From an uncultured Spirochaetaceae bacterium (GTDB lineage Bacteria; Spirochaetota; Spirochaetia; SZUA-6; RPPD01), in the NCBI GenBank assembly GCA_964634205.1, contig CAZWKE010000003.1, forward strand, positions 9,268 through 73,267: a DNA stretch of 64,000 nt. Reading direction: 5' to 3'. Below are positions 8,716-27,940 of the stretch, piece by piece (position 1 is the first letter of the stretch; each line of letters begins with the position of its first letter). Both the position numbers and the translations under genes were made by a program. The notes below the pieces were generated by a model, which saw only the letters and a list, made by a program, of their open reading frames with translations, searched no databases and was not told the origin of the DNA.

Positions 8716-9180
8716 TTATTTTTTTTCTCGTATCGCGACATTTATTTCGATCTTACCAAATGTTGTTTGGATCGGAACAATCAATGCCTCAATTGCCACG
8801 TCCGTTACCTCCATGTTGCTTCCCGAAAAAATCGCGGGCGGGGTCAAATCAAATTGAAAGCCGATTTCATGCAACTTGGTTACGGCCTGGGCTGTAATCA
8901 TATTAGCCAATTCGGTAATTGTTGCCTTGGCGAGTTCATCATTTTTATCAATTTTTTCACCGTTCATGGCGGAGGCCACCTCTAACGCGGTCTTTTCAGC
9001 CATATCGAACAAAACCCGTCCTTCCACATCACCGGCCAGGCCGACTATCGCGGTTATCCCGAGGACAGGCATGGAACTCGATTTAAGATACAACTCACCG
9101 CGTTTCACCTCCGTCTTCAGAACCTCGGTTAAGATATTAAAGGCCGCTTCTACGAAAGGGTTTATATATTCAACTCTCAT
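8716..9180 (-). CDS. cheX: CheY-P phosphatase CheX
   Basis: 154 aa. Begins MRVEYINPFVEAAFNILTEV, typical of the CheX/CheC-like family. Sits between cheW and cheY as in spirochetes. Confidence 0.8.
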   Translation of the reverse strand: MRVEYINPFVEAAFNILTEVLKTEVKRGELYLKSSSMPVLGITAIVGLAGDVEGRVLFDMAEKTALEVASAMNGEKIDKNDELAKATITELANMITAQAVTKLHEIGFQFDLTPPAIFSGSNMEVTDVAIEALIVPIQTTFGKIEINVAIREKK

Positions 9181-9234: not shown

Positions 9235-10566
9235 CTAATCCTTTTCTTTCCTATATGCAATAATCTTTCCTGATTTCACCTCTGAAAATCCCGGGTTTTT
9301 AAGAACCTCATTATCGCCGACAATCAGCAGGCCCCCGCCGGTAAGTTTTTCCTGAAACTGGGTAACAAGTTTCTCCTGCACGGTTTGATTATAAAAAGAA
9401 AGCACATCACGCGCAAGAATAATATCCAACTCGGGCAGGGGGGTCCCATGCAAAATATCATGGTATTCAAATAAAATCAGGTCCTTAACCGCTTTTACAA
9501 ACTGGTAGCCGTCGGTGGTGGCCTGCACATATTTTGCCTCTAAAAAATACTTCGGCACACCCTGGTTCGGGAGCACAAGATTTGGGGCCGCGGAAATATT
9601 CAGCAACTCATGATCGCTGGCCCATACCTTGATCCTCCGGTCCGGATATTTCAACGTTAAAATGCAGGCAATGGAGTAGGGATCATGCCCTTTTCCACAG
9701 TTCGGGCACCATACATCTATGGATCCTTTGGTCGGTGCCGGCACCAATTCTTCCATTTGCTTTCTGTAATCTTCCCCCCACAGCATGTTCGTATATACTG
9801 AATAATACTCCTCCAGAAAGCCTTCCGCGTCTTCCACACTCTCCAGCTGAACCGGTTTTTTCTGTGTTTTGCGCAGTTTTTTCCAGCCGTCCAGACGGCG
9901 CAGGCACCAGTCTCTGTTGATATCGGTAACATAGAAACTCTTAAAGGTGGCAAGCGTTTCAGTGATAAAATCAAATTCCAGTTCATCGCCTGATATTCGC
10001 GCTTTATTTACGGGCCCCTTTTCGGCGGCAGGTGCTTCCTGTATGATGCGCATACGCTCCAGATCATCCTCATCTACGCCGAAAACCCGTTCCACATCAA
10101 GAATGACATAGAGTTTTTTCTTTACCTCCACGACACCGCTGATATATTTCATATTGATATCCGCGAAAAGCGGATGCCGGGGTTGAATGGTAGACGAATC
10201 TATGCCCACGACGTTATCCACGCTGTCTACGATCATACCGATTACGGTTTCATCCAGACGCAGAATAAGGATATCCACCGCATCCTTTTTCCGCTCTTCC
10301 GAATATTCCAGATGAAACATCTTGCGTAAATTGATTATGCTGATGATCTCTCCCCGCAGATTATATACCCCTTCCACATAAGGAGAAGTATTGGGTACAA
10401 TGGTAAAATTCTTTGCCTTGGAGATCTCTTTTACCTTCATGATATCAATGCCGTAATCCCTGCCCGCAAGAGAGAAGGTCACCATTTTAAAGTCGATGTG
10501 AGCCTTTTTTTCCTGTTGTTCCTGCACATCTACCGCAGGTTGTGTCTGGTTTTCAACCGAACTCAT
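9235..10566 (-). CDS. cheW: CheW-CheR fusion protein (CheW3-like): coupling domain plus a CheR-type methyltransferase domain
   Basis: 443 aa. Residues ~25-165 are a CheW domain (VTFSLAGRDYGIDIMKVKEI...LRGEIISIINLRKMF). Residues ~190-443 carry CheR-like blocks; WCPNCGKGHDPYSIA aligns with the CheR SAM-binding loop W-S-A-G-C-S-T-G-E-E-P-Y-S. A CheR-like tail on CheW3 is known in spirochetes. Confidence 0.75.
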   Translation of the reverse strand: MSSVENQTQPAVDVQEQQEKKAHIDFKMVTFSLAGRDYGIDIMKVKEISKAKNFTIVPNTSPYVEGVYNLRGEIISIINLRKMFHLEYSEERKKDAVDILILRLDETVIGMIVDSVDNVVGIDSSTIQPRHPLFADINMKYISGVVEVKKKLYVILDVERVFGVDEDDLERMRIIQEAPAAEKGPVNKARISGDELEFDFITETLATFKSFYVTDINRDWCLRRLDGWKKLRKTQKKPVQLESVEDAEGFLEEYYSVYTNMLWGEDYRKQMEELVPAPTKGSIDVWCPNCGKGHDPYSIACILTLKYPDRRIKVWASDHELLNISAAPNLVLPNQGVPKYFLEAKYVQATTDGYQFVKAVKDLILFEYHDILHGTPLPELDIILARDVLSFYNQTVQEKLVTQFQEKLTGGGLLIVGDNEVLKNPGFSEVKSGKIIAYRKEKD

Positions 10567-13753: not shown

Positions 13754-14665
13754 ATGAGATTTAAAACCGCGTTAGCAATAAGTTTTCTTTTGCTGTTCCT
13801 CATAGTATGCCAATCCGGGCTTTATGCCCTTGATGTGGGAATACTTTTCAGATTTGAAAATATGGACTTTGCCCCTGATCGAGAAGAATCCGACCATACC
13901 TTCGACGGACTGACCTTTCCCTGGGGAATTTCAATCTTTGCCAGCCACGAAATCGGTGATAACTTTTCCATTACCACCGGCTTTACACAAGATCCTATTC
14001 TCAGGAATATTTCAGCCACTATGGTGAGTTACCGGTACAGCTTTATCAGCATCGGATTGGGTCCGTACTTTGGATTTTTTAACTCCTGGGACCCGCTGAT
14101 CCGCTCGGGGATTAACGCGTCATTACGTATTGATTTTCCCGGAATAATCTTCGCGGAAATAAGGACGGGCAATACCATCGGGAGTCTGTCGAAAGAGGGA
14201 GACTATTCACAGGAAGAAACCTCTCTTCTTGCCGGTTTTCATGTAATGAATGCGATTTGTACCTTTGGGCTTTTGTCCAAAACCTTTACCCTGGTCAAAG
14301 ATTCGTCACAGGTCATAGACAGTCTGGACAAGTATTATTTCAGCACCGACCTCTTTCAAAAAAATGTTCCGTTCAGGGTCCTTCTCACCTTTGCCTACCA
14401 GACCATTTCCAAGACTTTTATTACACCCACAACCACCAGTTCACACACCCTAAGCTCACTTATTATCGGCACAGAGGTGGAAGTGGAACTGGTACGGTTT
14501 TTAAACCTCCTTGTTATAATCGACAGCAGTATTTATACCTTCGGCCAGGACGATCTACTGGGAGTAGAACCGGGAAAAGGTCTGGGGGGATTTCTCTTCA
14601 GCGCTCAAATCGGATTAAAATTAAAAATAGACCAGTTGGTGCAAAAACCTGAAATAGCCGAATAA
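13754..14665 (+). CDS. Hypothetical secreted protein, probable outer-membrane beta-barrel
   Basis: 303 aa. Signal peptide MRFKTALAISFLLLFLIVCQSGLYA. Beta-strand-like hydrophobic/polar alternation throughout. Good RBS AAAAGGAG. Confidence 0.5.
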   Translation: MRFKTALAISFLLLFLIVCQSGLYALDVGILFRFENMDFAPDREESDHTFDGLTFPWGISIFASHEIGDNFSITTGFTQDPILRNISATMVSYRYSFISIGLGPYFGFFNSWDPLIRSGINASLRIDFPGIIFAEIRTGNTIGSLSKEGDYSQEETSLLAGFHVMNAICTFGLLSKTFTLVKDSSQVIDSLDKYYFSTDLFQKNVPFRVLLTFAYQTISKTFITPTTTSSHTLSSLIIGTEVEVELVRFLNLLVIIDSSIYTFGQDDLLGVEPGKGLGGFLFSAQIGLKLKIDQLVQKPEIAE

Positions 14666-14668
14666 AAA

Positions 14669-14700
14669 AAGAGCTGTCCAAGATCTTTGGACAGCTCTTT
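14669..14700. terminator. Bidirectional terminator between convergent genes
   Basis: Perfect 11-bp inverted repeat AGAGCTGTCCA / TGGACAGCTCT, flanked by an A7 run upstream and CTTTTTGTT downstream. Confidence 0.7.
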
Positions 14701-14725
14701 TTGTTATATTAATCTGTTTTGTTTC

Positions 14726-15751
14726 TTATTGGTTTCCCTGAGTATCAGTATTATTACTCTGTTCTTTATACATTTTCTGTTTTTCCAGAAAACGCAGGAT
14801 GTGCAGATTGCCAAGCCGCCTGATCTCAGCCTTCCTTCTGGCCTCTTCACGCTGCTGCATAATCCCCCATACCTGCTCATCATTTATATCAAGATTGAAA
14901 TCCTGCCAGGCCAGGTCGTACTTGACCTTTACATCTTTTACATAGGTTACAAAATCACCGCCGGTCTGTTGCGCGTCACGATAGATAATAATCCCTATGA
15001 ATTTGATAAACGGCTCGCTCTGGGGATAAAGCGGGAATACTCTCAGATCCCTGTCCCGTACATCGCTGATATAATTGGGATTTTCCCATTTCAGCCGTTT
15101 CCATCCGGCATAATTCAAATATCCAAAAAATATGGTCCGTTCCTCACCGTTCTGGTCTTTATAAATCAACCCGATACCGTGTGGAAAGTTCCTGCCGCTG
15201 ACAACCATCTGCATCTCTTTGATGGTGCCGACGTTTTTTATAATACCTTTATTGTCGAATTTATCACCCTTGCCCTTATTCTCATCACCTGCCTTATCCA
15301 TATATGCCGGAATCTCAAAAGGCGGCTTTATGATTGCATATGAATTGAATGCCGGTTCCGGGAAATGAATTCGCACGGCCAGAACCGCTTTACTTTTCAT
15401 GTCCTCGCCCTCAAAATCAGCTGCATTGGCAGTGGTCTGCGCTTCTTTGGCATAGGAATAGATAATATTTTCACGATACTGTGAGGATGAAGCCAGGTCA
15501 ACCTCCCAGTTACCAAGCGCCAGAGAAGTTTTTAACTTGTCCAACTCATCCGCGGGTACTTCAGCCCCGGCCTGGCTGCGGTAATCAACCATGGTGGCCT
15601 GGTTTTCGGTTGGTGTGGTTTCACCTTGTTTGGTTACATCCGCTTTTAAATCATTGAAATCAATGAGTACCTGTGGTTCGGTTACCTGGGCCACAGCCTG
15701 TACACAAATCAACACAAAGAGAACACCGAGCACAAAACATATCTTTTTCAT
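14726..15751 (-). CDS. flaA: Flagellar filament outer-layer (sheath) protein FlaA-like
   Basis: 341 aa. Signal peptide MKKICFVLGVLFVLICVQAVAQ, then ...VLIDFNDLKAD. Size and the N-terminal LIDF motif match spirochete FlaA. Lies next to chemotaxis and flagellin-glycosylation-type genes. Confidence 0.55.
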   Translation of the reverse strand: MKKICFVLGVLFVLICVQAVAQVTEPQVLIDFNDLKADVTKQGETTPTENQATMVDYRSQAGAEVPADELDKLKTSLALGNWEVDLASSSQYRENIIYSYAKEAQTTANAADFEGEDMKSKAVLAVRIHFPEPAFNSYAIIKPPFEIPAYMDKAGDENKGKGDKFDNKGIIKNVGTIKEMQMVVSGRNFPHGIGLIYKDQNGEERTIFFGYLNYAGWKRLKWENPNYISDVRDRDLRVFPLYPQSEPFIKFIGIIIYRDAQQTGGDFVTYVKDVKVKYDLAWQDFNLDINDEQVWGIMQQREEARRKAEIRRLGNLHILRFLEKQKMYKEQSNNTDTQGNQ

Positions 15752-15788: not shown

Positions 15789-15816
15789 ATTATAATCACC
15801 CTAAATATTTTGTCAA
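15789..15816 (-). promoter_or_regulatory. Near-consensus sigma-70 promoter for the flaA-like gene
   Basis: Minus-strand TTGACA (15811..15816), 16 nt, TATAAT (15789..15794). Then about 30 nt to RBS AAAAGGAG and the ATG at 15751. Confidence 0.6.
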
Positions 15817-15855: not shown

Positions 15856-16497
15856 TTACTCTATAATATCCGCTGAAAAAACAATACCGTTCTCGAAATC
15901 CGCGCTCGATTTCAGACCGGCGCAGTATTCCAGCAACGGATTGTTTTTCAGTGCGGCCACGTATCTTCCCAAATCAGTAATATCGGTGATGATAAAATCC
16001 TTCAAGTATTTATAAAAATGCAGTCTGTTCGCTTCCGAGTAATTGGATACCTGGTGTCCCTCTATAAAAACAACCACCTTTTTTACATCAGGAAAATTAT
16101 AGAGTACACTGTCCGCAAATGCCTGAAGAATCTGTCGCGGCGAAATAAGTACCAGTTTGTTTATTTTAAAAATTCCGTTGGAAAAATTTACATAGAGAAT
16201 ATGATCATGAAGAATAGCGGATTTTATTTTTGTATCCACGGGTATTACCGGCAGGTTCTCGTACTTATAGGGGCCGGATACAATCTCATTCACCAACATC
16301 ATGACATTTGCCTCTTCACTTCCCAAATCAGGGAGAAAGCGCTCCTCCCCCACTACCTTGGTTTTTCCCACATGCGGGAAAAAGAGTACGCGACGCACCC
16401 AATTTTCCGAAAATACGAAAAAAAAGAGCGAAACCAGAAATACCACACCCAATAATCCCATAAATATAATAGGAACAAATTTAGAATATATTTTCAC
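15856..16497 (-). CDS. GerMN domain-containing protein (amidase-associated)
   Basis: 213 aa. N-terminal transmembrane helix. C-terminal region ILYVNFSNGIF...SPRQILQAFADSVLYNFPDVKKVVVFIEGHQV resembles the GerMN fold, which is commonly paired with cell-wall amidases. Confidence 0.45.
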   Translation of the reverse strand: MKIYSKFVPIIFMGLLGVVFLVSLFFFVFSENWVRRVLFFPHVGKTKVVGEERFLPDLGSEEANVMMLVNEIVSGPYKYENLPVIPVDTKIKSAILHDHILYVNFSNGIFKINKLVLISPRQILQAFADSVLYNFPDVKKVVVFIEGHQVSNYSEANRLHFYKYLKDFIITDITDLGRYVAALKNNPLLEYCAGLKSSADFENGIVFSADIIE

Positions 16498-16500
16498 GTT

Positions 16501-17529
16501 CTACTCCGTAAATGCTTTTGACTTCTCAAACTTTTCAATAAATGAGCCGACGCCATTATATATCGCCTGGGACAGTTTCTTCAAGTGGTTTTCGCTTGTT
16601 AATGCAAGGGCTTCTTCTTTGTTTGATACAAATCCTATTTCAATAAGAATAGAAGGCATCTTGGCCTTGCGGACGACAAACCATCGCCCTTCCTTCAACC
16701 CCCTGTTTTCACTGGATTTACCGATCACCGCATTCAGGGAATCAAGGATGTCTTTGGCCAGGATGACACTCTCCCATGTATATTCCTCCTCCCTCATGCT
16801 GTTTAAGATGGGAATGATATCCTCATGTTCGTCGCTATATGCCGTGGGTTCAATCAACTCACGTCTGTGTGTCGGCGTCAGATACCAGACCTCAAATCCA
16901 TTGGCCTGTCTGTTCGCGGATGAGTTGGCATGAATGGAGATATATATAATCGCCTCATTCTTTTTTGTCGGTATATTATTGGCAATTTCCGGACGCTTTT
17001 CCAGGGAGATAAACTCGTCACGGTCGCGCGTAAGCTTGACAATCTTATTAGGATATTTATTGGTAAGCATTTTGTAAAGAAGCAATGATATGCGCAATAC
17101 CACGTCTTTTTCCGCTACCGTTACCTTTTTCCCGTTTACCGTATATGAATATGAGGCCCCGGGATCCTTGCCCCCGTGACCCGCATCGATCACGATGGCC
17201 GCAACCCGGTAATACGGAGTCTCCGACGGTTTATTAAAAAAATCCTTGATTATGGCGGCCGTCTCGTCCGGGATCAGTACCGCGCCCTTTTTCCTGATAA
17301 TTCCCGCCGTATTCACCTTTTTCATATAATTCAAAAGGACCCACGGCGCGCCGATTTTAAAAACCACCCTGTCCGTGTTTTTTATCAGCACACCGGTATC
17401 GAGCATATAATCCCACTCCAGAGAGACTTTTAATTCCTTTATAAAAGATTGTAACTCAATATACTCCGCCCGGAGGGTGAATAAGGAAAGTAAAAATAAA
17501 ATAACAACCAGGCTAATTCGCTTTTTCAT
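16501..17529 (-). CDS. N-acetylmuramoyl-L-alanine amidase (Amidase_3 family, AmiC-like)
   Basis: 342 aa. Signal peptide. Zinc-binding active-site motif AAIVIDAGHGGKDPGA. Also ISIHAN. Confidence 0.85.
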   Translation of the reverse strand: MKKRISLVVILFLLSLFTLRAEYIELQSFIKELKVSLEWDYMLDTGVLIKNTDRVVFKIGAPWVLLNYMKKVNTAGIIRKKGAVLIPDETAAIIKDFFNKPSETPYYRVAAIVIDAGHGGKDPGASYSYTVNGKKVTVAEKDVVLRISLLLYKMLTNKYPNKIVKLTRDRDEFISLEKRPEIANNIPTKKNEAIIYISIHANSSANRQANGFEVWYLTPTHRRELIEPTAYSDEHEDIIPILNSMREEEYTWESVILAKDILDSLNAVIGKSSENRGLKEGRWFVVRKAKMPSILIEIGFVSNKEEALALTSENHLKKLSQAIYNGVGSFIEKFEKSKAFTE

Positions 17530-19123
17530 CCGCCGCTCCCTTTCTCCGCTTCTTTAGAAGAGTATCGATAACATAAACCCCACCCTGGATGCCGCCTCTG
17601 CAAAAGGCATCCCAGAAAAGCCTTCCCAACACAATCATATTATCGGTAACAGCGGCGGTAAGGTGTACCCCGGTATACCGGGTAACCATTTCGAGGGCCT
17701 TGCCGATGGGCACGCCGTGCCAGTCATGCGCATGCTCTCTTTCGACAGCCGGCAGGGCAAGAATCGCCATCTTCTCCGGTACGCGGCCGGGCATATCGTT
17801 CCACAGCGGCCGCATGCGGGTCAAAGCCTCCCGGTTTGTCCGGTCTTCGATTATAAAGCAGGCTACACCCGGCGTCCCGTTTCCCAAAAGAAACTCATCG
17901 GTCTCAGGCCTGTCCGCCTTAAGGCGCAGAAAAATCCTCCGTAAAGCGTCTTGTGCCGCGGCAACCGCACGCCGCCGGTTGCCCGCCTTGGAAATGATAT
18001 TTCCGCATTTTTCCACGTTATTCCTGGGAAAGCACACCTTGCTGCCCGGTGCAACCCGTAAAAACAGGTCCATTACTCCCGGCAGGTTTCCGGCCTCGTC
18101 TGTACCGTAAATCGCCCGTATCTCACCGGGTATGGATATAAAGGCCCGTTCAGCGGAAACACAATGGTAGTTTGGTTCGAGAGAAAGGGGGGGCAGGCCC
18201 ACCGCGATGCGCATGGCTGCTTCCGTTACCCGCACACCATAGGCGTAGGGAAATGTCCAACCCGACATGTATCCGCCGGAAAGCCGTGCCGCGATCTCTC
18301 CCACCACCGGCCCTTGCCCCGAGAGTTTGATATCTCCCTTTGCCGCCCCGTTTGTAATACCCAATGCTTTTATGCCCTGACAAAATACCTTTTCTACAGC
18401 GGAAACGGTTGCCCGGTTATAGGCGGTGGGCATGGTATGTCCCATCTCTACAAAATACGGTGAAAAGCGGATATCCCTGTCCGCCACCCCGCATACGGTT
18501 ATTTCCCCTTTATAGACGATGGCATCAAGACTGAATTCAGGTCCCTCCACATACTCCTCGATTATTACCTTGTGAGATCGGGAATACATAAATCCCCGGG
18601 ACACCGCCTGCCGCAACTGATCGGGTGACTCGGCTTTCACCACTCCCCGTGCGCCCATATTATCCGCCGGTTTCACCACAACCGGGAAGCGGAGCTCGCC
18701 CTCCAGTTCCGCAAGCCGGGTTTCCTCGGTGATACACCGGAAATCCGGGCTGGGGACATGATTTGCTTTAAACACCTCCCGCATTCTTACCTTGTCGGTC
18801 GCGTCCAGGGCAACCTCATAAGGAATACCCGGCAGACCAAGGCGCTCGGCGGCATACGCCACACTGGTTGAAAAATCCGTACCCGCGGTAAATACCCCGT
18901 CCAATCCGTTTTCCCGGGCATAACGTTTTAGTACCCCTGTTATCTCTTCCGTGTGCCTGAGGTCTATATGCTCAAAAAAATCCGCATACTCCCTCCCGGG
19001 CACCTTGCTGCTGCCGTCAATCAAAATAACACGCCAGCCCAGTTCTCGTGCAATGCGCAGGGAGGGCAGCTGCATAATACCGCCCCCCAAAATGGCAATC
19101 GTTTTTTCATCGGCACCGCTCAC
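17513..19123 (-). CDS. ATP-grasp domain enzyme with a ~150-aa C-terminal extension
   Basis: 536 aa. Glycine-rich N-terminus TIAILGGGIMQL. Central ATP-grasp region (PVVVKPADNMGARGV ... IEEYVEGPEFSLDAIV). Overlaps the neighbours at both ends, indicating an operon. Confidence 0.65.
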   Translation of the reverse strand: MSGADEKTIAILGGGIMQLPSLRIARELGWRVILIDGSSKVPGREYADFFEHIDLRHTEEITGVLKRYARENGLDGVFTAGTDFSTSVAYAAERLGLPGIPYEVALDATDKVRMREVFKANHVPSPDFRCITEETRLAELEGELRFPVVVKPADNMGARGVVKAESPDQLRQAVSRGFMYSRSHKVIIEEYVEGPEFSLDAIVYKGEITVCGVADRDIRFSPYFVEMGHTMPTAYNRATVSAVEKVFCQGIKALGITNGAAKGDIKLSGQGPVVGEIAARLSGGYMSGWTFPYAYGVRVTEAAMRIAVGLPPLSLEPNYHCVSAERAFISIPGEIRAIYGTDEAGNLPGVMDLFLRVAPGSKVCFPRNNVEKCGNIISKAGNRRRAVAAAQDALRRIFLRLKADRPETDEFLLGNGTPGVACFIIEDRTNREALTRMRPLWNDMPGRVPEKMAILALPAVEREHAHDWHGVPIGKALEMVTRYTGVHLTAAVTDNMIVLGRLFWDAFCRGGIQGGVYVIDTLLKKRRKGAADEKAN

Positions 19124-20934
19124 CCGGCGTCCCCCCTTTTCACCGCATATACCTCAAAAGTATCTCCGAGTCCGAACACTCGGCTTACCGCCGAAAATAG
19201 TTTCGCACACCATTTTCCCGGCAGGCCGGGGAGCGCTTTTCCCTTGAAAAATCTTTCCCCGTGATGCCCGGTAATATATATTTTTTTTACCGTGAAACCG
19301 AATCCCGCAAGCTGTTTTTTGATTTTTGCCGGGTGCCAGACGGTATAGTGATCCGGCGGACTCTTTTCCAGAAACCGACGCATGTTCTTCCGGGCCGAGA
19401 TCCCCGCCGCCGAAGGCGTGGAAAAAGCCAGGATTCCACCGGGCTTTAAAAGCAGGCTGATATGCTTCAGTATGGCAAACGGATTTTGAAAATGCTCCAG
19501 TACAAACCACATACTCACTCCATCGAAAAGGGCGCGGTTTTTCTTGACATACATATCACCGTCTTTCCCAAAATCCAACTCTTCACAGGAAATTCCGAGT
19601 GTCTCCCTGACATACCGTACGGCGGCGCCGCTGATATCCAGACCACGCGCCGCTATATTCCGGGCGGCCGCCTCCTTGAGAAACGGCCCGTAGGCGCAAC
19701 CGATATCCAATAAGCGCGGGTGTTCCTTATTTTCCCTCCATAATCTTTTAATAACACGCAGCCGCCTCCTGCCCTGTTGCCGGATACATGCAAAGTCCTG
19801 CAGATAGGTCCTGCCGTACTGTTTCCGATACTCTTTGAAAAAGTAGTCCCGGTTGTAGTACTGCTTTTTTTCCAGGAAAAAAAGTCCGTAGATCATGCCG
19901 CAGTGCGAACAAGCGAAATATGTCTTGGCCGGAAAGCGGGCCGACACCCTGTTGCCCCGATGATGACAAAGCGGGCAGACGGCTGAACCGCTGAATTCCC
20001 GGCCCTGCAGATGTGTGATTATGGCCGGCCGCGTGCGAGGGTCCCGCGGCGGGTAGCGAAGCAACAGCCGCTTAAAACGCTGTTCATTCTTTAACAGGGC
20101 CCGAAGGCGTTTCAGATTCGGTTTTCGTATGCCGATCTCGGGAAATCCCGCCTCCCGACTGAGCCTCCGGTGATACGGCGTCGGATTAAAACTAATCACC
20201 GGAACGCCAAGAGCCAGTGCCTCATAACAGGTAAGGCCGAAATGCGTAAATACAAGATCGTACTCCCGGATAAGACCTTGCAGATCACCCCTGTTTTTAT
20301 ACACGGTGACACCCTGCGGCCATTTGGTGTGTTTAAACAAAGGCCCCTGGACCACGGCTATTTCCGCGGGCCTGAACACCCCCTGTTCAAGGAGTTCCCG
20401 CAGCAGTACCGGCGATAATTGACACGGGTCTTCTCCGCCGAAACTCAACAACACCCGTTTGAAGGGATGGTGCATACTCCGCCGGGCGGCGGTGTGTAAC
20501 CGGGGTTCATAGGGGATGACAATATTGGGAGTGCTTCTCTTCGCTGTTCCGGGCAGCGTATCTATCAGGTAGGGGAACAGGTCCCGGGCGGCACCACCCT
20601 CATCCAGGCCGACAACCGGTGCTTGTTCCCTATACATTGAAAACAACGACCGCGGGGTGCGCCTGCCGTCCAGTACAATGCACTTTAATTTTGCGGCGGG
20701 CGGCAACTGTTTTACCAGGTACCGGTGTTCGGCCTGCGAAACGGGCAGTACGCTCAGGGATTTATCCGGGGGAAGCAAAAGCAGGGCCCCGGTGCCGAAC
20801 AGACGCACATGGTCCATACAACGTTTGAAATGTCCCATTCCTTCTCCCTGCCCGACCCGTGGGACAAAAAGGACCCGCCTCATTCGGCTTGCGGTACTGC
20901 TGCCTGCCAAAGCTCTGTGTGCGTTTTCAGCCAT
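19120..20934 (-). CDS. Fusion protein: PseG-like UDP-sugar hydrolase (GT28-type) + zinc ribbon + class I SAM-dependent methyltransferase
   Basis: 604 aa. N-terminal VLFVPRVGQGEGMGHFKRC matches the PseG GxGHxxR motif. Middle segment CPLCHHRGN...CSHCG is a 4-Cys ribbon. C-terminal LLDIGCAYGPFLKEAAARNIAARGLDIS is SAM-methyltransferase motif I, followed by ILAFSTP. Confidence 0.6.
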   Translation of the reverse strand: MAENAHRALAGSSTASRMRRVLFVPRVGQGEGMGHFKRCMDHVRLFGTGALLLLPPDKSLSVLPVSQAEHRYLVKQLPPAAKLKCIVLDGRRTPRSLFSMYREQAPVVGLDEGGAARDLFPYLIDTLPGTAKRSTPNIVIPYEPRLHTAARRSMHHPFKRVLLSFGGEDPCQLSPVLLRELLEQGVFRPAEIAVVQGPLFKHTKWPQGVTVYKNRGDLQGLIREYDLVFTHFGLTCYEALALGVPVISFNPTPYHRRLSREAGFPEIGIRKPNLKRLRALLKNEQRFKRLLLRYPPRDPRTRPAIITHLQGREFSGSAVCPLCHHRGNRVSARFPAKTYFACSHCGMIYGLFFLEKKQYYNRDYFFKEYRKQYGRTYLQDFACIRQQGRRRLRVIKRLWRENKEHPRLLDIGCAYGPFLKEAAARNIAARGLDISGAAVRYVRETLGISCEELDFGKDGDMYVKKNRALFDGVSMWFVLEHFQNPFAILKHISLLLKPGGILAFSTPSAAGISARKNMRRFLEKSPPDHYTVWHPAKIKKQLAGFGFTVKKIYITGHHGERFFKGKALPGLPGKWCAKLFSAVSRVFGLGDTFEVYAVKRGDAG

Positions 20935-21599
20935 TGTACAAGTTCTACAGTTTCTATGGGTTTGTGTCTATAGAGTGCCGTATACACAGCATGGATTATT
21001 TTGAAATCTGCGGCCGTATCCAACGTTACCCGCGCCCGGGGAAGCCGGCACTCCGGCGGACAAGGGGGTTCATGTACCGAGAACTCAGTTTTATGCTTCA
21101 GAATATAAGGGGTAACATGTTCATGATCATATGGATCCGTTGTTTTTTCACGGGCGGCAAACAAGGCCCGGGCCTCTACCACCTCAACCCCCGTTCCCAG
21201 TGGCGCGCCTTCAAACCTGCTGAAATCCGTACTGTGTTGCTGATGGTACTCCAGGTTGCGCCGGGTCAGCTCCGCCGAAACAAGGGGATTGTCTCCGGTT
21301 GCCCTGACAATCCGGGTTACGCCGAAATGCCCGGCCGCCCGGCAGTATCGTTCCAGGACATCAAGCGAAGGCCCGGCAAACAGGTGAAACTGCCATTTCT
21401 CCGCGTACCGTTTCAGGGCCGAGGCGCTCTCTGCATCGGTAAGCAGGGCATGCACATCAACCGCCACCCGGCCAAGGGCCTGCATAGCATGCTCGATGAC
21501 CGTGAGTCCAGCCAGTTCCAGCAGGGCTTTCCCGGGCAGGCGTTTTGATTTCAATCGTACCTGTAAAAATATACCACTTTTCATTCCGGATCTTCCCAT
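20880..21599 (-). CDS. CMP-nonulosonic acid cytidylyltransferase (NeuA/PseF/KdsB family)
   Basis: 239 aa. N-terminal GIFLQVRLKSKRLPGKALLELAGLTVIEH fits the cytidylyltransferase P-loop pattern (ARxxSxRLPxK). Confidence 0.75.
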   Translation of the reverse strand: MGRSGMKSGIFLQVRLKSKRLPGKALLELAGLTVIEHAMQALGRVAVDVHALLTDAESASALKRYAEKWQFHLFAGPSLDVLERYCRAAGHFGVTRIVRATGDNPLVSAELTRRNLEYHQQHSTDFSRFEGAPLGTGVEVVEARALFAAREKTTDPYDHEHVTPYILKHKTEFSVHEPPCPPECRLPRARVTLDTAADFKIIHAVYTALYRHKPIETVELVQWLKTHTELWQAAVPQAE

Positions 21600-22546
21600 A
21601 ACTCGATCAGACTCTTTGCGTCCCTTCTGAATCTGTATTTATTCAGGATTACCCACTTTCGTACGTTGAGGAACTCTTTCAGGGAGGTAATAATCCCGGT
21701 ATTCGATTTTATCATGTAGCGGAAAAAATGCCTGAACGGCAGCACCCCGCGGTCGCTTCTGAAATCCACACACAGGTTTTTCAGGTAAAACAGTTTATAG
21801 CTTTCATCGGGGGTGTTGTCCTCAAAGGACAACTCATAATTGTAATGAAACAGCAGGGAAGTATTACAGACAATATTTTCTCCCCATAGAAAACACCTGA
21901 AACCAAAATCGGCCTTCTGCCAGAAAGGGGTGGTGATATTCCCGTCGAATCCGCCGCACAAACGGTATTTTTCCTTATTATAAATACCGCAGTAATCGAA
22001 GGCGAACAGGCTTTTCATACCGTCGCGCAGGGGGTTCCACGGGATGATTTTAAAGGCCTTCTTTTCATACCCCGGTGTCTGGATACTGGGGATTGTATCA
22101 CCTTTTTTATTTTTCAGAATGGGAACCGTACATAGTGCGTTTTGGTGCAGGATTTTTTCCAGTACCCGTGCGGCAAGCGAGCTTTGGGATATCTTCATAT
22201 CGTTCCAGATGATAAACACCAAGCGGGACATGGCCTCTTCTATTCCGATATTCACTTTTTCCCCGGCGGTGCATTTTTCATGCAGCAAGAGAAACCGGAC
22301 ATTGGGATAGCGGCGGGAGAGGCTCTCCACATCATACGCAATATCCGGCCCCTCAATGAAGATAACCTCAAGGGACTCTTTCCGGGGCAGATCGTTGAAT
22401 ACATCATGCTGGAACAGCCTGCCCCCCCGGTTTAAGATGACGATCGAGACGGGAAAAAGGTATTTGCTTACGCGGGGTTTCGGCGCTCCGCCCATTACCG
22501 TATAGGATATTTGCGGGCGTTTAAAAATTGTAGGTGTAGTACTCAT
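21581..22546 (-). CDS. Glycosyltransferase-like protein (degenerate GT-A/GT2 fold)
   Basis: 321 aa. FPVSIVILNRGG...QHDVFNDL resembles a GT2 N-terminus. No clear DXD motif. In an operon with the sugar-nucleotide enzymes. Confidence 0.35.
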   Translation of the reverse strand: MSTTPTIFKRPQISYTVMGGAPKPRVSKYLFPVSIVILNRGGRLFQHDVFNDLPRKESLEVIFIEGPDIAYDVESLSRRYPNVRFLLLHEKCTAGEKVNIGIEEAMSRLVFIIWNDMKISQSSLAARVLEKILHQNALCTVPILKNKKGDTIPSIQTPGYEKKAFKIIPWNPLRDGMKSLFAFDYCGIYNKEKYRLCGGFDGNITTPFWQKADFGFRCFLWGENIVCNTSLLFHYNYELSFEDNTPDESYKLFYLKNLCVDFRSDRGVLPFRHFFRYMIKSNTGIITSLKEFLNVRKWVILNKYRFRRDAKSLIELWEDPE

Positions 22547-24014
22547 CGCATTCTTTACAGATATCGGGATATTCTTCCTTTAAATGCCGGAGATAAAAAT
22601 CGTTGCCCCGGTCCCAGATAACGGCCGGGTCATCCTGTAAAAGATTGCCCAGAACATGCTGCTTGTTGATGTCCTCCCTGCAGAGGCTGACACTGCCGTC
22701 CAGAAAAACCGCAATGTCCCGTTTAATATGCCAGCAGGGAAAACGTTTCAGGGGTGAAAGGTCCGTTACCCTGTACTGCGGCAGAAAACCGGAAAAATAA
22801 TCATACTTTTGAATAATAATATTTTCCGTGGTTTGTTTCCATTGCTTATAGAATTTTTCAAGCTCATCCTCATTCTGCTGCATACGCACGGCCTGGACAA
22901 ATACATTTCGACCGAAGGTCTCAAGCAGTATTTTGGTATTTTCCATGGCCTCGGCAAAACCCTGCCCACGCAAGGTGTTGTAACACGCTTCACTGATCGC
23001 ATCCAGCGAAACAATCCAGCGGCAGCGATCACGTACATTGCCGCTTAATGACTGCAGGGCCTTCGCGTCCCATCCCAGGGCGGATGTCTCAATTACCAGT
23101 TTGAAGGACGGTATCTCGCATACTTTTTCGATTAGCTCATATGCCTTGCTGTGCAGCGAATGCTCGCCCCATAACGAAAAGCCGATGACCGCGTCCTCAC
23201 AGAATCCCCGTATTTTCTCCAGTATTTTTTCAAAATCCTCCGGGGCCATTTCACCCTTTTTCCCCAGCATATCGGGTCTGAATTTGGGGTACGGACAGTA
23301 TGAGCATTGCTGCGCGCAGCCCTCCACGGTCTGAACCAGAAAATAAACGGGCAGCGTGCGTAATATTTCCTTGTGTTCCTGTAAGGCCTTCAGTATTTCC
23401 TGTTCCGAAAACGCCCCGTACTCCGCCAGCCGTTTTAATAAAAAGAAATTCCTTCTGCAGTCCGCGGACAGGCCGGCACGCAGCAGACGCAGGTCAACGG
23501 GAGATATCTCGGTCTCCAGGTCAAATGAGTTGATGTCCTTCTTTATCAGCTCAAACAGGCTGTTCCGGTCCGGTACCGTGATTTCATCTTCACCCAGCAG
23601 GTTCAGCAAGGGCGTTAGAATATAGGGTTTCAGGATTTCCGGGGTAAGTCCGTAGGGATACCCGTCGGCAAAGGTGTAATCCGCAAAATAGGTCTTATGA
23701 TTCGCGTACATGCGTTTTGTGATCTCACTGTTCAAAAACATACAGTCCGCGTAGAAATAAAAAATATTATCAAACCCCTCGGCCTTTTCTTTTATTCGGC
23801 GCAGCATTTCTCCCGTGGTCCAATGCTCATCCTGCAGGGACTCATACTGTTTTAATTCCCTGCAGGGTGAAGAAAGCAGAACCAGGGTCTTTTCGACCTC
23901 CGGGAGGCTCCCGATGTATTCTTTCACAAAATCAAGGGGGGTCTTCCCGCTCCGCACGTTTTCAAGGGCATAGGGAGAGAGATTAATTCCGTTTACTATG
24001 GCTATATTTTTCAT
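22521..24014 (-). CDS. Radical SAM / SPASM-domain enzyme with a ~220-aa N-terminal extra domain
   Basis: 497 aa. 4Fe-4S cluster motif CAQQCSYC (CxxxCxxC) at about residue 225. C-terminal Cys-rich auxiliary-cluster region CWHIKRD...SLCRED...CKECDEY. The N-terminal 220 aa precede the radical SAM core. Confidence 0.7.
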   Translation of the reverse strand: MKNIAIVNGINLSPYALENVRSGKTPLDFVKEYIGSLPEVEKTLVLLSSPCRELKQYESLQDEHWTTGEMLRRIKEKAEGFDNIFYFYADCMFLNSEITKRMYANHKTYFADYTFADGYPYGLTPEILKPYILTPLLNLLGEDEITVPDRNSLFELIKKDINSFDLETEISPVDLRLLRAGLSADCRRNFFLLKRLAEYGAFSEQEILKALQEHKEILRTLPVYFLVQTVEGCAQQCSYCPYPKFRPDMLGKKGEMAPEDFEKILEKIRGFCEDAVIGFSLWGEHSLHSKAYELIEKVCEIPSFKLVIETSALGWDAKALQSLSGNVRDRCRWIVSLDAISEACYNTLRGQGFAEAMENTKILLETFGRNVFVQAVRMQQNEDELEKFYKQWKQTTENIIIQKYDYFSGFLPQYRVTDLSPLKRFPCWHIKRDIAVFLDGSVSLCREDINKQHVLGNLLQDDPAVIWDRGNDFYLRHLKEEYPDICKECDEYYTYNF

Positions 24015-24073: not shown

Positions 24074-27000
24074 TTATTTCTCCGGAATGAGTTCCAGAAT
24101 AAGTTCAACCTCACCGCGCGAGAGTTTGGTGGCCCTGGCAATCTCCTGAACCGACCAGCCCTGATGGGCGAGTTTCACTACCGTCTGCCGTTTATCACTT
24201 GAAGGGGCCCCACGGTCCTTTTTGGTCTGGGCCACCTCTTCCTTGATCAGACTTTCCAAAAGTCGCAGCTGTTCCTGGGCCTGGGTATTTACCTGTTCCA
24301 GCCTTGTCTCGGCCCGGGCCAGCCATTCCCTGGCGATATTCAGTTTGTCCATCCGTGCCTCAAGCTCCAGAATCAGGTGATCAATACCTTCCATTTTATC
24401 GACCACGGCGTCGGTCTTTTCCTTGTTGGCGCTGATAAGCTCAATCTCCGCTTTCAGTTCCTTTATCAGGGAGGGTATCCCCTTCATTTCCTTCTGCATT
24501 TCACCTAATGATTTGTCAAGACCGGTGAGCTTTTGAAAATTCTTATCCACTCCCTGGGTCGTGCTGTCCAGTACCTTCTTTTTCTGTTCCAGGCGGGCAA
24601 AACGGGTATCTACCTCTTTTTCCAGATCTTCGAGTGTTCTCATTTTCAGCTCCAGCTCCTGGACCGCATCGTAATTTGTAGTAATATTCACAATCTTGGC
24701 GTCTATTTCATGTGAGATGGAAATAAGGCGTTTAAAATCGGTTTCCATGCTGTTGATACGCTTTTTCTCGGTCACAAATTCCCTGACCTTGGCGGACATA
24801 TCATCCACGAGCTTTCTAGTGGTGACAAACTCTTTGTTGATGGCGTCCACGTCCTTTTTATACGCCGATATCTTGACGAGCTCCTTTTTCATGGAGTCGA
24901 TATCACTCTCAAGGTTGATTTTAAGTGTATCCGCCCGTTCAAATATTTTTGTCTGGGCCACAAAATTCTTCTGCTGTTTTTCTATCTCGCTTAATCCCTG
25001 CCCCAGACCGGAGGCCTTTTCCACCAGTCTATCAAGCTCATCCTTTAGGTGCGCCCTTTCCTTGGTGGTCGCGTCTATCAGATCGTTCTTCTGTTCCGCA
25101 AAATTCTTTTCCAGCGTCGTAAAGGTGGTGGAAAACAGGGTTTCCAACTCGGTTTGACGCTCCACAAAACTATGCTGCAGTGAGTTCAAAGCCGAATTAA
25201 ACGTTTCTTCCAATTCCTGCCGGCGTTCATCAACATCCTGTTTCAGGGTATTAATTCTTGCCGACGAATCCTCTGTCAGTCCGGAAAGCTTTTCAGATAT
25301 ATCCTGCTCCGAATCCTGGTATTTCTGCAGTATTTCCTCGTGCCACTGGCGGGCTTCCTCCGTAGTGCCGGAGAAGTAAGCGGAAAGCTTTTCCCGGGAA
25401 TTCTTGAAATTCTCCTCAAGCTGCTTAATATTTTGCTGTACGTCGATTTTCCCGTCTTCCAGCGCCTTGAACATCGAGGCAATATACCCGTTAATCTCAG
25501 CCTGGGTGCTGTCCAGTTTGGTATCGATAGCCTCGCGCAGCTCCGCTTCCTTTTCCTGCATGGCCCGGCCGGCCGCGCTTTCGATGCTGCGGATATTTTC
25601 CTGTTTGATGGTTTCGATCTTGGTGGAGACCTCTTCCTGGAACTCTTCTATTACCTTTCGCAGTGCGTCACTGCGCTCCCTGAAATCATTAAAGAAATCA
25701 TCCTCAAGTACGCTTAATTTCCCTGATACATTTTCGTACGCCCTGGTTTTCAAGGTATTTATTTCAGCTTCGATATTCTCAATTTCTTCCCGGTAATTCT
25801 CCAGCTCCGCGGCCGCCCTGGATTTCTCCGCACTGCGTTCATCCGCCAAAAGCTTGTTAAAATCGCTGAAATCATGCCTGATCTTCTCCGTGATCCCATC
25901 CATATAATCACGCAGGGATTTTTCCATGGATTCAATATCCACATTACAGTCTTCAAGTTTTTTAAATTTAAAGGAAATCTCCTCTTCATAGGTTCCCAGC
26001 CGCTCTTCTACGCCTTTTGTATACTCATCCATTTCCGCGGCCGCCTGCTCCCGGGCAAGCCTGGTCTGATGAAAATCCTCTTCGTATTTTTGTATGCTCC
26101 GAGCGATTTCGGTCTTCCTGTGCTCGAAGGCCTGTACCATGGATTCTATATTCTCGTTTATTTCAGTCCGCGTCACGTCTATTTTGGAGTCGATAAACTC
26201 ACGCAGCTCATGTTCCTTTTCTTCCAAAGTATCCGCCGCCATACTTTCGATCGTCGTATTATTCTCCTGTTTAATCTGTTCAATCCGCGTCAACACCTCT
26301 TCCTGGAACTTATCCAGGCTGGTTTGGACGGCCAGGCTTCGTTCCTTAAAATCGGCAAAGAAATCATCTTCCAGGATTTGCAGCTTTTCGGATACATTTT
26401 CATATGCCGTGGTTTTCAGCGCCTTTACCTCGGAATCGATACCCTCTATCTCGTTTCGTATCCGGGAAAGCTCCCGGTCGGCCTTGGCGGTTTCCGCCGA
26501 GCGTTCTTCTTCCAGACGGTTTCCAAAGTCTGAAAAATCACTTTTGATCTTATCGCTGACACCCGCCATATACGCGCGCAGTGATTTTTCAAGCTCTTCA
26601 ATATCTACATTGCAATCTTTTAGTCTCTGGAACTTATAGGCAAGCTCTTCATCATAGGTTTCCAGCCGTTGTTCCACGTTTTTGGTAAAATCTTCCATTT
26701 CCAGCGATACACTTTCCTGGGTATCCCTGGCCCGGTTTAAGAAATCGGTCATACCGGCGCTGACCTCATTTTCCAGATCACGCAGCTTGGCGGAAATCTG
26801 TCGTTTCAGGTCCTTCATCTGTTTGTCCAGTTCCACGTGCCAAACGTTTGCGTCGGAACGCAGTACCCCGAACATCTCCCCGATCTCTTTCTTCTTGGTA
26901 TCAAGGTCGGTATTCACCCGCTTGAAGTATTCCTCGATTTCATAAGCCTGCTCCCTGGCCTTTTTATCGATAGACTCTTGCAGGTTATGGAACACCTCAT

Positions 27001-27940
27001 CATTAAAGGTCTCTCCCCGTACCGCCGCCTTTTCCAGCTGCTCATGGAACATCTTTTCGATTCGGGTGTACTGCTCCTTAAAATCCTCGATCTTTGCGGC
27101 ATACTCCGCATCAAGAGCCTGTGAAGTATCGTGAACCGTCTCCAGCATGGTTCGCAGCTCCAGGGTGATCTTTTCCTGTTCCTCCTGCGCACCGCTGATA
27201 ACCGCGCCGGTTTCGGAAGAAAGCTCGCTGATCCCCTGTTTTCTACGCTTGATGATCTCTTCATCCAGGCCGGACAGGAGTTCCCGATAGGCCTTTTCAG
27301 CGGTTTTCACCACCTCTGATCTGCGTTCCTCAAGCTTTTTCACGTACCCCGCCACACCGGTGACATTCTGTTCGATTATATGCAGATTTTGTTCAAGTTC
27401 CTCAATGCTGTCGCGATGTGTATCAAGCAGTTTTTTACGGATCTTATCCAGTTCAAGCCTGTTTTTCTCCGTAGATTTAGTCAGCGCGTTCTCCAGGGAC
27501 GTTTCCAGTTTGGTGATACGGTGCGAGACATCTTTTACCTGTGAACCTACCCGGTCGATAAAAACCGATTCATCCTTGATACGCGAAAGATTCTCATCAA
27601 CCCTGCCGGACATGGCGACAAGCTCATTTAACGTACCCGCGTAATTGTCTACGGTGGCTTTCATATTTTTGAAATCACCCTCTTTGGCCTTTAGGGCTTC
27701 TTCAAAAGTGAGAATCCGCTTTAAAACCTCTCTGCTCTTTTTCAGATTAAGATCCAGATCGACCGCGATATCATTAATCTCAACGGTTTTTTCCTTGATA
27801 AACACGGATATTTCTTCTTTCAGTTTGTCCGAAAAGCGTTTTACCTTTTCCAGACTTCTGTTGCGCTTATCAAGCGTTCTAAAGAGGATTACAATAATAA
27901 TAACTACCAAAAATGTAGGCAGGCTGAAAGTGTAGTCCAT
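24074..27940 (-). CDS. Giant membrane-anchored coiled-coil protein with a C-terminal helix-turn-helix
   Basis: 1288 aa. N-terminal transmembrane helix FSLPTFLVVIIIVILF. About 1150 aa of charged heptad-like sequence (E/K/L-rich). C-terminus LAHQGWSVQEIARATKLSRGEVELILEL is HTH-like. Very strong RBS GGGAGGGGAG. Confidence 0.55.
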   Translation of the reverse strand: MDYTFSLPTFLVVIIIVILFRTLDKRNRSLEKVKRFSDKLKEEISVFIKEKTVEINDIAVDLDLNLKKSREVLKRILTFEEALKAKEGDFKNMKATVDNYAGTLNELVAMSGRVDENLSRIKDESVFIDRVGSQVKDVSHRITKLETSLENALTKSTEKNRLELDKIRKKLLDTHRDSIEELEQNLHIIEQNVTGVAGYVKKLEERRSEVVKTAEKAYRELLSGLDEEIIKRRKQGISELSSETGAVISGAQEEQEKITLELRTMLETVHDTSQALDAEYAAKIEDFKEQYTRIEKMFHEQLEKAAVRGETFNDEVFHNLQESIDKKAREQAYEIEEYFKRVNTDLDTKKKEIGEMFGVLRSDANVWHVELDKQMKDLKRQISAKLRDLENEVSAGMTDFLNRARDTQESVSLEMEDFTKNVEQRLETYDEELAYKFQRLKDCNVDIEELEKSLRAYMAGVSDKIKSDFSDFGNRLEEERSAETAKADRELSRIRNEIEGIDSEVKALKTTAYENVSEKLQILEDDFFADFKERSLAVQTSLDKFQEEVLTRIEQIKQENNTTIESMAADTLEEKEHELREFIDSKIDVTRTEINENIESMVQAFEHRKTEIARSIQKYEEDFHQTRLAREQAAAEMDEYTKGVEERLGTYEEEISFKFKKLEDCNVDIESMEKSLRDYMDGITEKIRHDFSDFNKLLADERSAEKSRAAAELENYREEIENIEAEINTLKTRAYENVSGKLSVLEDDFFNDFRERSDALRKVIEEFQEEVSTKIETIKQENIRSIESAAGRAMQEKEAELREAIDTKLDSTQAEINGYIASMFKALEDGKIDVQQNIKQLEENFKNSREKLSAYFSGTTEEARQWHEEILQKYQDSEQDISEKLSGLTEDSSARINTLKQDVDERRQELEETFNSALNSLQHSFVERQTELETLFSTTFTTLEKNFAEQKNDLIDATTKERAHLKDELDRLVEKASGLGQGLSEIEKQQKNFVAQTKIFERADTLKINLESDIDSMKKELVKISAYKKDVDAINKEFVTTRKLVDDMSAKVREFVTEKKRINSMETDFKRLISISHEIDAKIVNITTNYDAVQELELKMRTLEDLEKEVDTRFARLEQKKKVLDSTTQGVDKNFQKLTGLDKSLGEMQKEMKGIPSLIKELKAEIELISANKEKTDAVVDKMEGIDHLILELEARMDKLNIAREWLARAETRLEQVNTQAQEQLRLLESLIKEEVAQTKKDRGAPSSDKRQTVVKLAHQGWSVQEIARATKLSRGEVELILELIPEK
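25370..26701 (-). repeat. Diverged in-frame tandem duplication (2 x ~666 bp, 2 x ~222 aa) inside the giant gene
   Basis: Protein residues 414-635 and 636-857 align colinearly (EMEDFTKNVEQRLETYDEELAYKFQRLKDCNVDIEELEKSLRAYM versus EMDEYTKGVEERLGTYEEEISFKFKKLEDCNVDIESMEKSLRDYM, roughly 50% identity). DNA identity is only partial, so the duplication is ancient. Confidence 0.8.

Follow-up and report, generated by a model that had tools for sequence, protein, structure and literature searches.

We analysed a 64,000-nucleotide stretch of genomic DNA from an uncultured Spirochaetaceae bacterium (NCBI GenBank assembly GCA_964634205.1, contig CAZWKE010000003.1, positions 9,268 to 73,267 of the forward strand; referred to below as the window) and characterized a minus-strand operon in which five cytoplasmic enzymes precede two exported proteins and the flagellar gene flaA. 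Domain identities, operon structure, gene fusions and deep conservation within Spirochaetia were observed directly. The reading that we favour for the five enzymes is a lineage-specific branch that synthesizes and tailors a cytidine monophosphate (CMP)-activated nonulosonic acid of the pseudaminic acid (Pse) type and feeds glycosylation of the flagellin FlaB. We infer the substrates, the order of steps and FlaB as the target, and put the probability of this reading at roughly 0.45.

A seven-gene unit upstream of flaA

The features discussed below are the following, with coordinates counted from the first letter of the window (SAM, S-adenosylmethionine; aa, amino acids).

22521-24014, minus strand: spiro-SPASM radical-SAM enzyme gene, 497 aa; Radical_SAM and SPASM (Pfam), TIGR04321 (NCBIfam)
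21581-22546, minus strand: orphan GT-A (GT2/GT27-like) glycosyltransferase gene (ORF2), 321 aa, cytoplasmic
20880-21599, minus strand: putative SpsF-type cytidylyltransferase gene (ORF3), 239 aa; PF02348 CTP_transf_3, 85 bits
19120-20934, minus strand: putative PseG-family GT-B / zinc ribbon / methyltransferase fusion gene (ORF4), 604 aa; Methyltransf_23
17513-19123, minus strand: predicted L-amino-acid-ligase-type ATP-grasp gene (ORF5), 536 aa; GTG start in GTGA overlap
16501-17529, minus strand: N-acetylmuramoyl-L-alanine amidase gene; Amidase_3, 158.8 bits; signal peptide, hydrophobic N-terminus
15856-16497, minus strand: GerM (Germane) domain gene; PF10646, 35.2 bits; N-terminal membrane anchor
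15789-15816, minus strand: predicted sigma-70 promoter TTGACA-16-TATAAT; 12/12 consensus, best in the scanned region
14726-15751, minus strand: flaA, flagellar filament outer-layer (sheath) protein; PF04620, 219.6 bits; signal peptide
14666-14702, no strand given: 17-bp hairpin terminator past flaA
2249-3922, plus strand: Maf/MptE-like (DUF115) gene, candidate flagellin nonulosonate transferase; PF01973, 110.4 bits

The preliminary description of this DNA, made from the sequence alone, had listed the first five genes as overlapping, translationally coupled minus-strand open reading frames (ORFs), and our ORF listing reproduced their coordinates and order. Its radical-SAM/SPASM, methyltransferase and ATP-grasp calls were borne out by Pfam and NCBIfam, and the FlaA-like and Maf/DUF115 genes that it had placed at 14726-15751 and 2249-3922 were recovered at those positions (219.6 and 110 bits). 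By longest ORF, the four junctions of the five genes overlap by 26, 19, 55 and 4 nt, in keeping with the proposed coupling. Homologues support starts at M6 for the cytidylyltransferase (21584) and at M18 for the fusion protein (20883). With these starts, the GT-A/cytidylyltransferase and cytidylyltransferase/fusion junctions are 4-nt ATGA overlaps, and the fusion/ATP-grasp junction is a GTGA overlap. The operon does not end after five genes as had been described: the first 17 nt of the Amidase_3 gene lie within the ATP-grasp gene, and only 3 nt separate the amidase gene from the GerM gene. The tight coupled unit consists of seven genes, amidase and GerM included, and the amidase gene is part of one transcription and translation unit with the ATP-grasp gene. 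All five enzymes are devoid of signal peptides and of membrane or hydrophobic segments; the amidase and GerM products both have N-terminal export signals. A 104-nt gap separates the GerM gene from flaA and contains the predicted sigma-70 promoter. flaA has its own promoter, and read-through from the seven-gene operon is possible as well. The 12/12 promoter and the strong hairpin allow flaA expression independent of the preceding operon.

Conservation was assessed by scanning the spiro-SPASM alignment against one genome per GTDB species, which gave at least 581 encoding loci. All locus comparisons refer to the best 80 of these at least 581 loci; all 80 belong to Spirochaetia, with free-living and termite-gut spirochaetes sampled. 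Gene presence was scored per locus by tblastn with the window proteins, and denominators count the loci whose contig reaches far enough. The order radical-SAM enzyme, GT-A, cytidylyltransferase, PseG/methyltransferase fusion, ATP-grasp, amidase, GerM, flaA is conserved, with the same strand used throughout. The GT-A gene was present in 69 of 69 loci, the cytidylyltransferase in 66 of 66, the fusion in 59 of 60 and the ATP-grasp gene in 52 of 53, while the amidase gene and flaA were each found in 50 of 50, flaA always being next after the block. In 41 loci a GerM-family ORF separates the amidase gene from flaA; tblastn missed two of these, the gene being too divergent for its detection in some loci. 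Two variants hint at separable modules. One locus (L062, 9785-15660) contains the block without the fusion and ATP-grasp genes, both missing together, and in a Treponema sp. locus (L072, 8420-14946) an opposite-strand gene stands directly after the fusion gene. This gene order in at least 50 independent genomes is far beyond chance, and the block is a core syntenic feature and not a mobile or variable island. The recurrent upstream neighbours inspected are housekeeping genes (XseA/XseB, YchF, LigA, ProAB and DUF192).

The GC content is 53.5% over 18001-22000 compared with 43-47% in flanking genes, a rise that coincides mainly with the fusion gene and covers the ATP-grasp gene too. The fusion protein is the least conserved member of the block (median identity 39%; ATP-grasp 50%). 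Given the conserved synteny, the GC rise is probably compositional rather than a result of horizontal transfer.

Domain composition of the five enzymes

The first gene encodes a plain member of the TIGR04321 family, scoring 542.9 bits (cut-off 250) with residues 5-497 aligned to model positions 3-510 of 510. It is thus above cut-off end to end, and it carries both the CxxxCxxC motif and a C-terminal Cys-rich domain. Homologues are named spiro-SPASM in PGAP and IMG annotations. The family is already named and has no function assigned to it, and our literature search found no paper using the term 'spiro-SPASM'; new here are the domain dissection and the invariant operon context. The radical-SAM core motif C233-x3-C237-x2-C240 is invariant in 16 sequences, and only four C-terminal cysteines are invariant in the same set (C427-x12-G-x4-C445 ... 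C486-x2-C489). This is a one-cluster 'twitch' layout and not a full seven-Cys SPASM domain. The best solved relative of the family profile is BtrN (PDB 4m7t, E 1.3e-13, two matched stretches), followed by anSME at E 0.045. The match includes the auxiliary-cluster domain, with residues 435-491 aligning to BtrN 197-257, and the single auxiliary-cluster twitch layout C-x12-G-x4-C ... C-x2-C is common to both proteins. BtrN is the radical-SAM 2-deoxy-scyllo-inosamine dehydrogenase of butirosin biosynthesis and oxidizes a carbohydrate alcohol. Identity between the two is low, the spirochaete protein adds a cytidylyltransferase-like N-terminal domain of ca. 220 aa, and BtrN is encoded in an antibiotic cluster whereas spiro-SPASM is encoded in a core operon.

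Residues 1-225 of spiro-SPASM share homology with ORF3, the cytidylyltransferase of the same operon (BLASTP E 7e-8), and ORF3 also matches the TIGR04321 model at positions 85-227. The N-terminal domain is a degenerate SpsF-like cytidylyltransferase domain and a paralogue of ORF3. It is without the basic R-x-x-S-K-R-L-P-G-K loop, which suggests a substrate-binding rather than a catalytic role. An identity of the SPASM enzyme as a maturase of ribosomally synthesized and post-translationally modified peptides was considered and rejected: no precursor peptide gene or peptidase was found, BtrN is the nearest relative, and a sugar-nucleotide fold forms part of the same chain.

The ORF3 cytidylyltransferase itself has an intact basic N-terminal loop (R-L-K-S-K-R-L-P-G-K; sequence FLQVRLKSKRLPGK). 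Its best PDB match is 6oew, an uncharacterised 'Cytidylyltransferase', at E 2.9e-18 over the full length. It had been described as NeuA/PseF-like. The family assignment stands (PF02348, the cytidylyltransferases of ulosonic acids, 85 bits); within this family, its sequence marks it as a probable SpsF-type enzyme (COG1861-like) and not PseF, NeuA or KdsB. As in the sps operon of Bacillus subtilis, it is paired with a PseG/SpsG-like protein, and in B. subtilis genetic evidence shows that both SpsF and SpsG are needed for legionaminic acid to be produced or transferred (PMC7439481). The spirochaete operon differs from sps in having no NeuB/SpsE-type synthase, aminotransferase or acetyltransferase, and in carrying a second, degenerate copy of the SpsF fold fused to the radical-SAM enzyme. 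Ordinary enzymes of lipopolysaccharide (LPS) or 3-deoxy-D-manno-octulosonic acid (Kdo) synthesis, which the preliminary description had named as the competing identity, were rejected. KdsB models, whose cut-offs lie at 155-281 bits, give the protein 16-30 bits, and the surroundings contain no gene for KdsA, lipid A or Waa functions.

ORF4 encodes a fusion of a GT-B domain (residues ca. 20-312), a 4-Cys zinc ribbon (C320/C323/C342/C345) and a class I SAM methyltransferase (389-549+). An AlphaFold2 (AF2) model of residues 1-351 (mean predicted local distance difference test score, pLDDT, 87.6) shows the GT-B fold followed by a small beta-ribbon with four invariant cysteines. Campylobacter jejuni PseG (PDB 3hbm/3hbn) was the only significant PDB match of the N-domain profile (E 1.3e-4). 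The catalytic-His motif G32-x-G34-H35-x-K-R of the fusion protein (GqGtGHlkR) aligns to GfGHikR in PseG, and its GG-x-D motif (sFGGEDpanLs) aligns to cmGGtDikNLs. The domain also combines the structural features of PseG, namely a GT-B fold and a histidine in the N-terminal glycine-rich loop. To this extent the earlier PseG-like call holds, although at the sequence level an identity as PseG is supported solely as distant homology. Unlike PseG, the spirochaete domain is fused to a zinc ribbon and a methyltransferase, and PseB/C/H/I are not adjacent. The methyltransferase half matches generic class I enzymes and, with longer coverage, NDP-sugar 3-C-methyltransferases of the TcaB9/KijD1/TylC3 type (E 1.5e-10, profile 393-577; NDP, nucleoside diphosphate). 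TcaB9 consists of a zinc-binding N-domain, a SAM domain and a C-terminal sugar-binding domain (Methyltransf_14). In the fusion protein the 4-Cys ribbon is present and neither Methyltransf_13 nor Methyltransf_14 was detected by Pfam. One homologue (P0009, 825 aa) has a cytidylyltransferase, a PseG-like domain and a methyltransferase in one chain, the front part being a cytidylyltransferase with 52% identity over 225 aa.

The GT-A-like call for ORF2 is supported by its AF2 model (pLDDT 87), which has a GT-A fold. The protein has no family match in Pfam and NCBIfam, Glycos_transf_2 is weakly matched by 9 of 37 family members, and no PDB relative of the family is detectable by sequence. At E<=1e-30, the family comprises 198 representatives among 1.84 billion proteins, with Spirochaeta (Winmispira) thermophila as a cultured carrier. 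For the DxD metal-binding motif, a single conserved Asp was seen (D116 in W-x-D-M, after beta-4); a W221-G-E-N motif is conserved as well.

The ATP-grasp protein contains PF13535 ATP-grasp_4 (62 bits), PF18603 LAL_C2 (57 bits) and PF18130 ATPgrasp_N (40 bits), and matches PDB entries 4dim (E 9e-24) and 3vot, the L-amino acid ligase BL00235 (E 2.2e-23). GTDFSxxVA and DKxxMR motifs are conserved in 59 orthologues, and a C-terminal extension of ca. 130 aa has no fold assigned. By these matches, the enzyme is probably of the L-amino-acid-ligase type, in the carboxylate-amine ligase class.

Proposed pathway and alternative explanations

That genes of the block are fused, that they overlap at ATGA and that the radical-SAM enzyme carries a domain paralogous to the cytidylyltransferase suggests that the first four proteins act on one nucleotide-sugar/ulosonic-acid scaffold. 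Only two signals are family-specific, the PseG motifs and the SpsF-type cytidylyltransferase, and both point to a nonulosonate pathway. A tailoring role is suggested by the likeness of the radical-SAM domain to BtrN, which oxidizes a carbohydrate alcohol, by the carboxylate-amine ligase type of the ATP-grasp enzyme and by the resemblance of the methyltransferase to nucleotide-sugar methyltransferases. In the pathway that we propose, a uridine diphosphate (UDP)-4-amino-6-deoxy-hexosamine made by PseB/PseC-type enzymes encoded elsewhere would be the starting sugar, and the ATP-grasp ligase would acylate the free amine of this sugar, using a carboxylic acid other than acetate. Next, the acyl substituent would be methylated by the methyltransferase half of the fusion, and the PseG-family half would free the sugar from UDP. 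A NeuB/PseI-type synthase, also encoded elsewhere, would condense the freed sugar with phosphoenolpyruvate, after which the SpsF-type enzyme would form the CMP-sugar. The dead cytidylyltransferase-like domain of spiro-SPASM may hold the cytidylyl-sugar or ulosonic acid while the BtrN-type radical-SAM domain oxidizes or deoxygenates a hydroxyl. Finally, Maf would use the donor in the cytoplasm to O-glycosylate FlaB flagellins; the window does contain a Maf gene. The five enzymes have no signal peptides, which fits a donor used before flagellar export. FlaA has a signal peptide, so that a cytoplasmic pathway would not reach it, leaving FlaB as the plausible target. The suggestion in the preliminary description that a flagellar protein is modified is in this respect plausible for FlaB, not for the exported FlaA.

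Two published systems bear on this proposal. FlaB of Treponema denticola is modified by a Pse-configured nonulosonic acid whose N-linked substituent is a 2-methoxy-4,5,6-trihydroxyhexanoyl group, and this glycan is essential for filament assembly (PMC13439194). Building such a group takes amide ligation, O-methylation and deoxygenation of an acyl carbon, chemistry that could be supplied by the ATP-grasp ligase, the methyltransferase and the radical-SAM enzyme, the three 'extra' enzymes of the operon. The methoxylated N-acyl chain matches the ligase and methyltransferase encoded here. It also makes the earlier suggestion of previously undescribed sugar chemistry overstated, since a methoxylated N-acyl Pse derivative is already published. 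In Shewanella oneidensis, the five-gene operon sfmABCDE, with a SAM methyltransferase, an ATP-grasp_4 ligase and a NeuB-like synthase, is needed for a nonulosonate-type flagellin glycan (PMC3765264). This operon is a genetic precedent for a methyltransferase and an ATP-grasp ligase in a nonulosonate flagellin-glycan operon. Both are cytoplasmic five-gene sets with these two enzymes, and sfm has Maf genes nearby; unlike the spirochaete operon, sfm has a NeuB-like synthase, a thiamine pyrophosphate enzyme, a reductase and a sigma-28 promoter, and is without a radical-SAM enzyme, GT-A, PseG-like domain or cytidylyltransferase (PMC3765264).

Several observations weigh against a nonulosonate pathway for FlaB. 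No PseF, NeuA or LegF model in NCBIfam matches the cytidylyltransferase at E<=0.01, so that the NeuA/PseF part of its first description is not supported. The PseG model TIGR03590 scores 25.7 bits, covering residues 151-249 only, against an equivalog cut-off of 153.55, and falls short of a plain PseG call. By fold, MurG and UDP-glycosyltransferases (UGTs) score like PseG for the GT-B domain, which could thus be a transferase and not a hydrolase. No PseB/C/H/I or NeuB gene was found by Pfam among ORFs of at least 150 aa in the 64-kb window, nested antisense shadow ORFs excluded, and the absence of PseB/PseC/PseH/PseI reported in the preliminary description is thereby confirmed; nor was a Pse core gene found among the recurrent flanking families inspected in ca. 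50 related genomes. Maf lies 13.6 kb from the block on the opposite strand, and was found within +-10 kb of the block in 0 of 80 related loci. The proposed scheme assigns no step to the GT-A enzyme, which would have nothing to do in a glycan of one sugar unit. Further, translational coupling ties the enzymes to a peptidoglycan amidase and a GerM protein, and flagellin glycosylation genes typically sit in variable islands, unlike this deeply conserved syntenic block. Since flaA has its own promoter, its position next to the block says little in favour of a flagellar target. Transcription in T. denticola joins flaA to four upstream non-flagellar ORFs under a sigma-70 promoter (PMC9481697), compared with seven genes here, which indicates that the block is missing, at least in part, from that position.

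The block may instead make a different nucleotide-activated sugar that is not a nonulosonic acid, an explanation that we consider rather unlikely. The product could be a CMP-activated shorter 3-deoxy-ulosonic or hexonic acid, or a C- or O-methylated keto-sugar in which BtrN-type oxidation makes a ketone and the TcaB9-like methyltransferase acts beside it. The GT-B and GT-A enzymes would transfer it to an acceptor at the cytoplasmic face (glycolipid, lipid-linked glycan or protein), so that every enzyme, GT-A included, gets a job. The GT-A enzyme keeps a WGEN-type motif and, judged by its sequence, looks catalytically competent, while the GT-B domain is structurally as near to true transferases (MurG, WlaC, UGTs) as to PseG, although its sequence-level signal is specific to PseG. 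In the methyltransferase, the profile matches NDP-sugar 3-C-methyltransferases over 185 residues and a zinc ribbon precedes the domain as in TcaB9, but the TcaB9-type C-terminal domain was not detected by Pfam. No nonulosonate synthase lies nearby; on the other hand, the block also has no flippase, polymerase or lipid-carrier transferase, and PF02348 enzymes characterized to date use 2-keto-3-deoxy sugar acids, nonulosonates among them.

We regard it as rather improbable that the enzymes serve the cell wall alongside the amidase and GerM protein with which they are co-translated, e.g. in peptidoglycan-precursor modification. Here, the ATP-grasp enzyme would be a side-chain or cross-bridge amino-acid ligase, the MurG/PseG-like domain would act on a lipid- or UDP-linked precursor, and the modification could bear on the housing of periplasmic flagella. 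ATP-grasp ligases that add side-chain amino acids to UDP-N-acetylmuramoyl (MurNAc)-peptides are known, the D-aspartate ligase of Enterococcus faecium being one, but the enzyme described here is nearest to free L-amino-acid ligases and not to Ddl or Mur ligases. The 17-nt ATP-grasp/amidase overlap with GerM 3 nt on, the invariable downstream position of amidase and flaA (50 of 50) and the presence of MurG among the top fold matches of the GT-B domain all fit such a role, and the block may be modular, being split after the fusion gene in L072 and lacking fusion and ATP-grasp genes in L062. However, the synthesis of peptidoglycan precursors is not known to involve a CMP-ulosonate-type cytidylyltransferase, a radical-SAM dehydrogenase or a methyltransferase, and operon membership of housekeeping genes is often historical. 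A small-molecule cluster of the aminoglycoside or aminocyclitol kind, which analogy to the butirosin genes might suggest since the radical-SAM domain has its best solved relative in BtrN and GT-B and ATP-grasp proteins co-occur, is highly improbable: the block is a core feature across Spirochaetia with fixed housekeeping neighbours, contains no aminotransferase, cyclase, transporter or resistance gene, and holds a cytidylyltransferase of the ulosonic-acid family.

Neighbouring features

Downstream of flaA, related loci contain cheA and cheW-cheR. In the window, flaA is followed by cheA (10580-12853), a cheW-cheR fusion (9235-10566) and cheX (8716-9180), and the order flaA-cheA-cheW/R recurs in another locus (L083, 16783-20966). 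This order resembles that of the Borrelia operon flaA-cheA2-cheW3-cheX-cheY3. For the T. denticola flaA operon, peptides translated from the published RT-PCR and RACE primers of TDE1716-1713 (PMC9481697) were compared with the ATP-grasp family; these short stretches do not fit its GTDFSxxVA and DKxxMR motifs, and an amidase identity looks plausible for TDE1714 alone (ELGFIS against EIGFVS). Convergent to flaA, a 303-aa signal-peptide protein with no Pfam match (13754-14665, plus strand) is kept at that position in 23 related loci (e.g. L006, 19258-20148), and a second family, a 385-aa beta-rich protein, fills the equivalent position beside flaA in 33 loci.

Directly upstream of the operon lies the gene for a 1288-aa coiled-coil protein with a DUF6115/DUF2802-like C-terminus (24074-27940, minus strand). 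It has an internal duplication of ca. 150 aa (EMEDFTKNVEQRLETYDEEL... vs EMDEYTKGVEERLGTYEEEI...) and, among the related loci, holds this upstream position in no genomes but the two closest (L001 and L002). The Maf gene directly follows, on the same strand, the gene of a peptidyl-prolyl isomerase-like protein matching the Pfam family TP_0929_3rd, named after a T. pallidum protein (590-3922, plus strand; also L081), and no sugar-biosynthesis genes adjoin it. Elsewhere, the Maf protein was found on one 7.8-kb contig with the same neighbours, and a metagenome scan with Maf gave one 1.8-kb fragment. Rfam matches in the window are three tRNAs only, at 253-428 and 8128-8201 (minus strand), with no riboswitch or other RNA element beyond these. 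Unrelated to the operon, a UPF0182 family membrane protein (950 aa, 810 bits) is encoded at 52269-55121 on the plus strand between a two-component system and ftsH.

Implications

As far as we searched, the literature describes neither the operon and its conservation beside flaA nor the domain dissection or the proposed link to the flagellin glycan, although the glycan class is known. A broader claim, that the block is an unrecognised radical-SAM-dependent nonulosonic-acid branch common to flagellated Spirochaetia, is put forward tentatively, as we consider it somewhat doubtful. If it is true, the spiro-SPASM family would gain a function, namely to oxidize or deoxygenate, by BtrN-type chemistry, a cytidylyl-sugar or ulosonic acid bound by its dead cytidylyltransferase domain, and the block would encode amide ligation, O-methylation and deoxygenation steps for the N-acyl chain of the flagellin glycan. 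We found no paper combining 'radical SAM' and 'nonulosonic' in the literature searched, within which this would be the first radical-SAM step in a nonulosonate-type pathway. If the link to flagellin is wrong, the block would still represent a conserved spirochaete-specific envelope or sugar pathway.

For the T. denticola glycan, no assignment of genes to the N-acyl chain was found in the literature that we read, and the operon offers candidates in its ligase, methyltransferase and radical-SAM enzyme and in the pair of PseG-like and SpsF-like proteins. Motility is a main virulence trait in pathogenic spirochaetes. Beyond the flagellin glycan, the operon gives a first functional context to a named radical-SAM family that is encoded in at least 581 species-level genomes.

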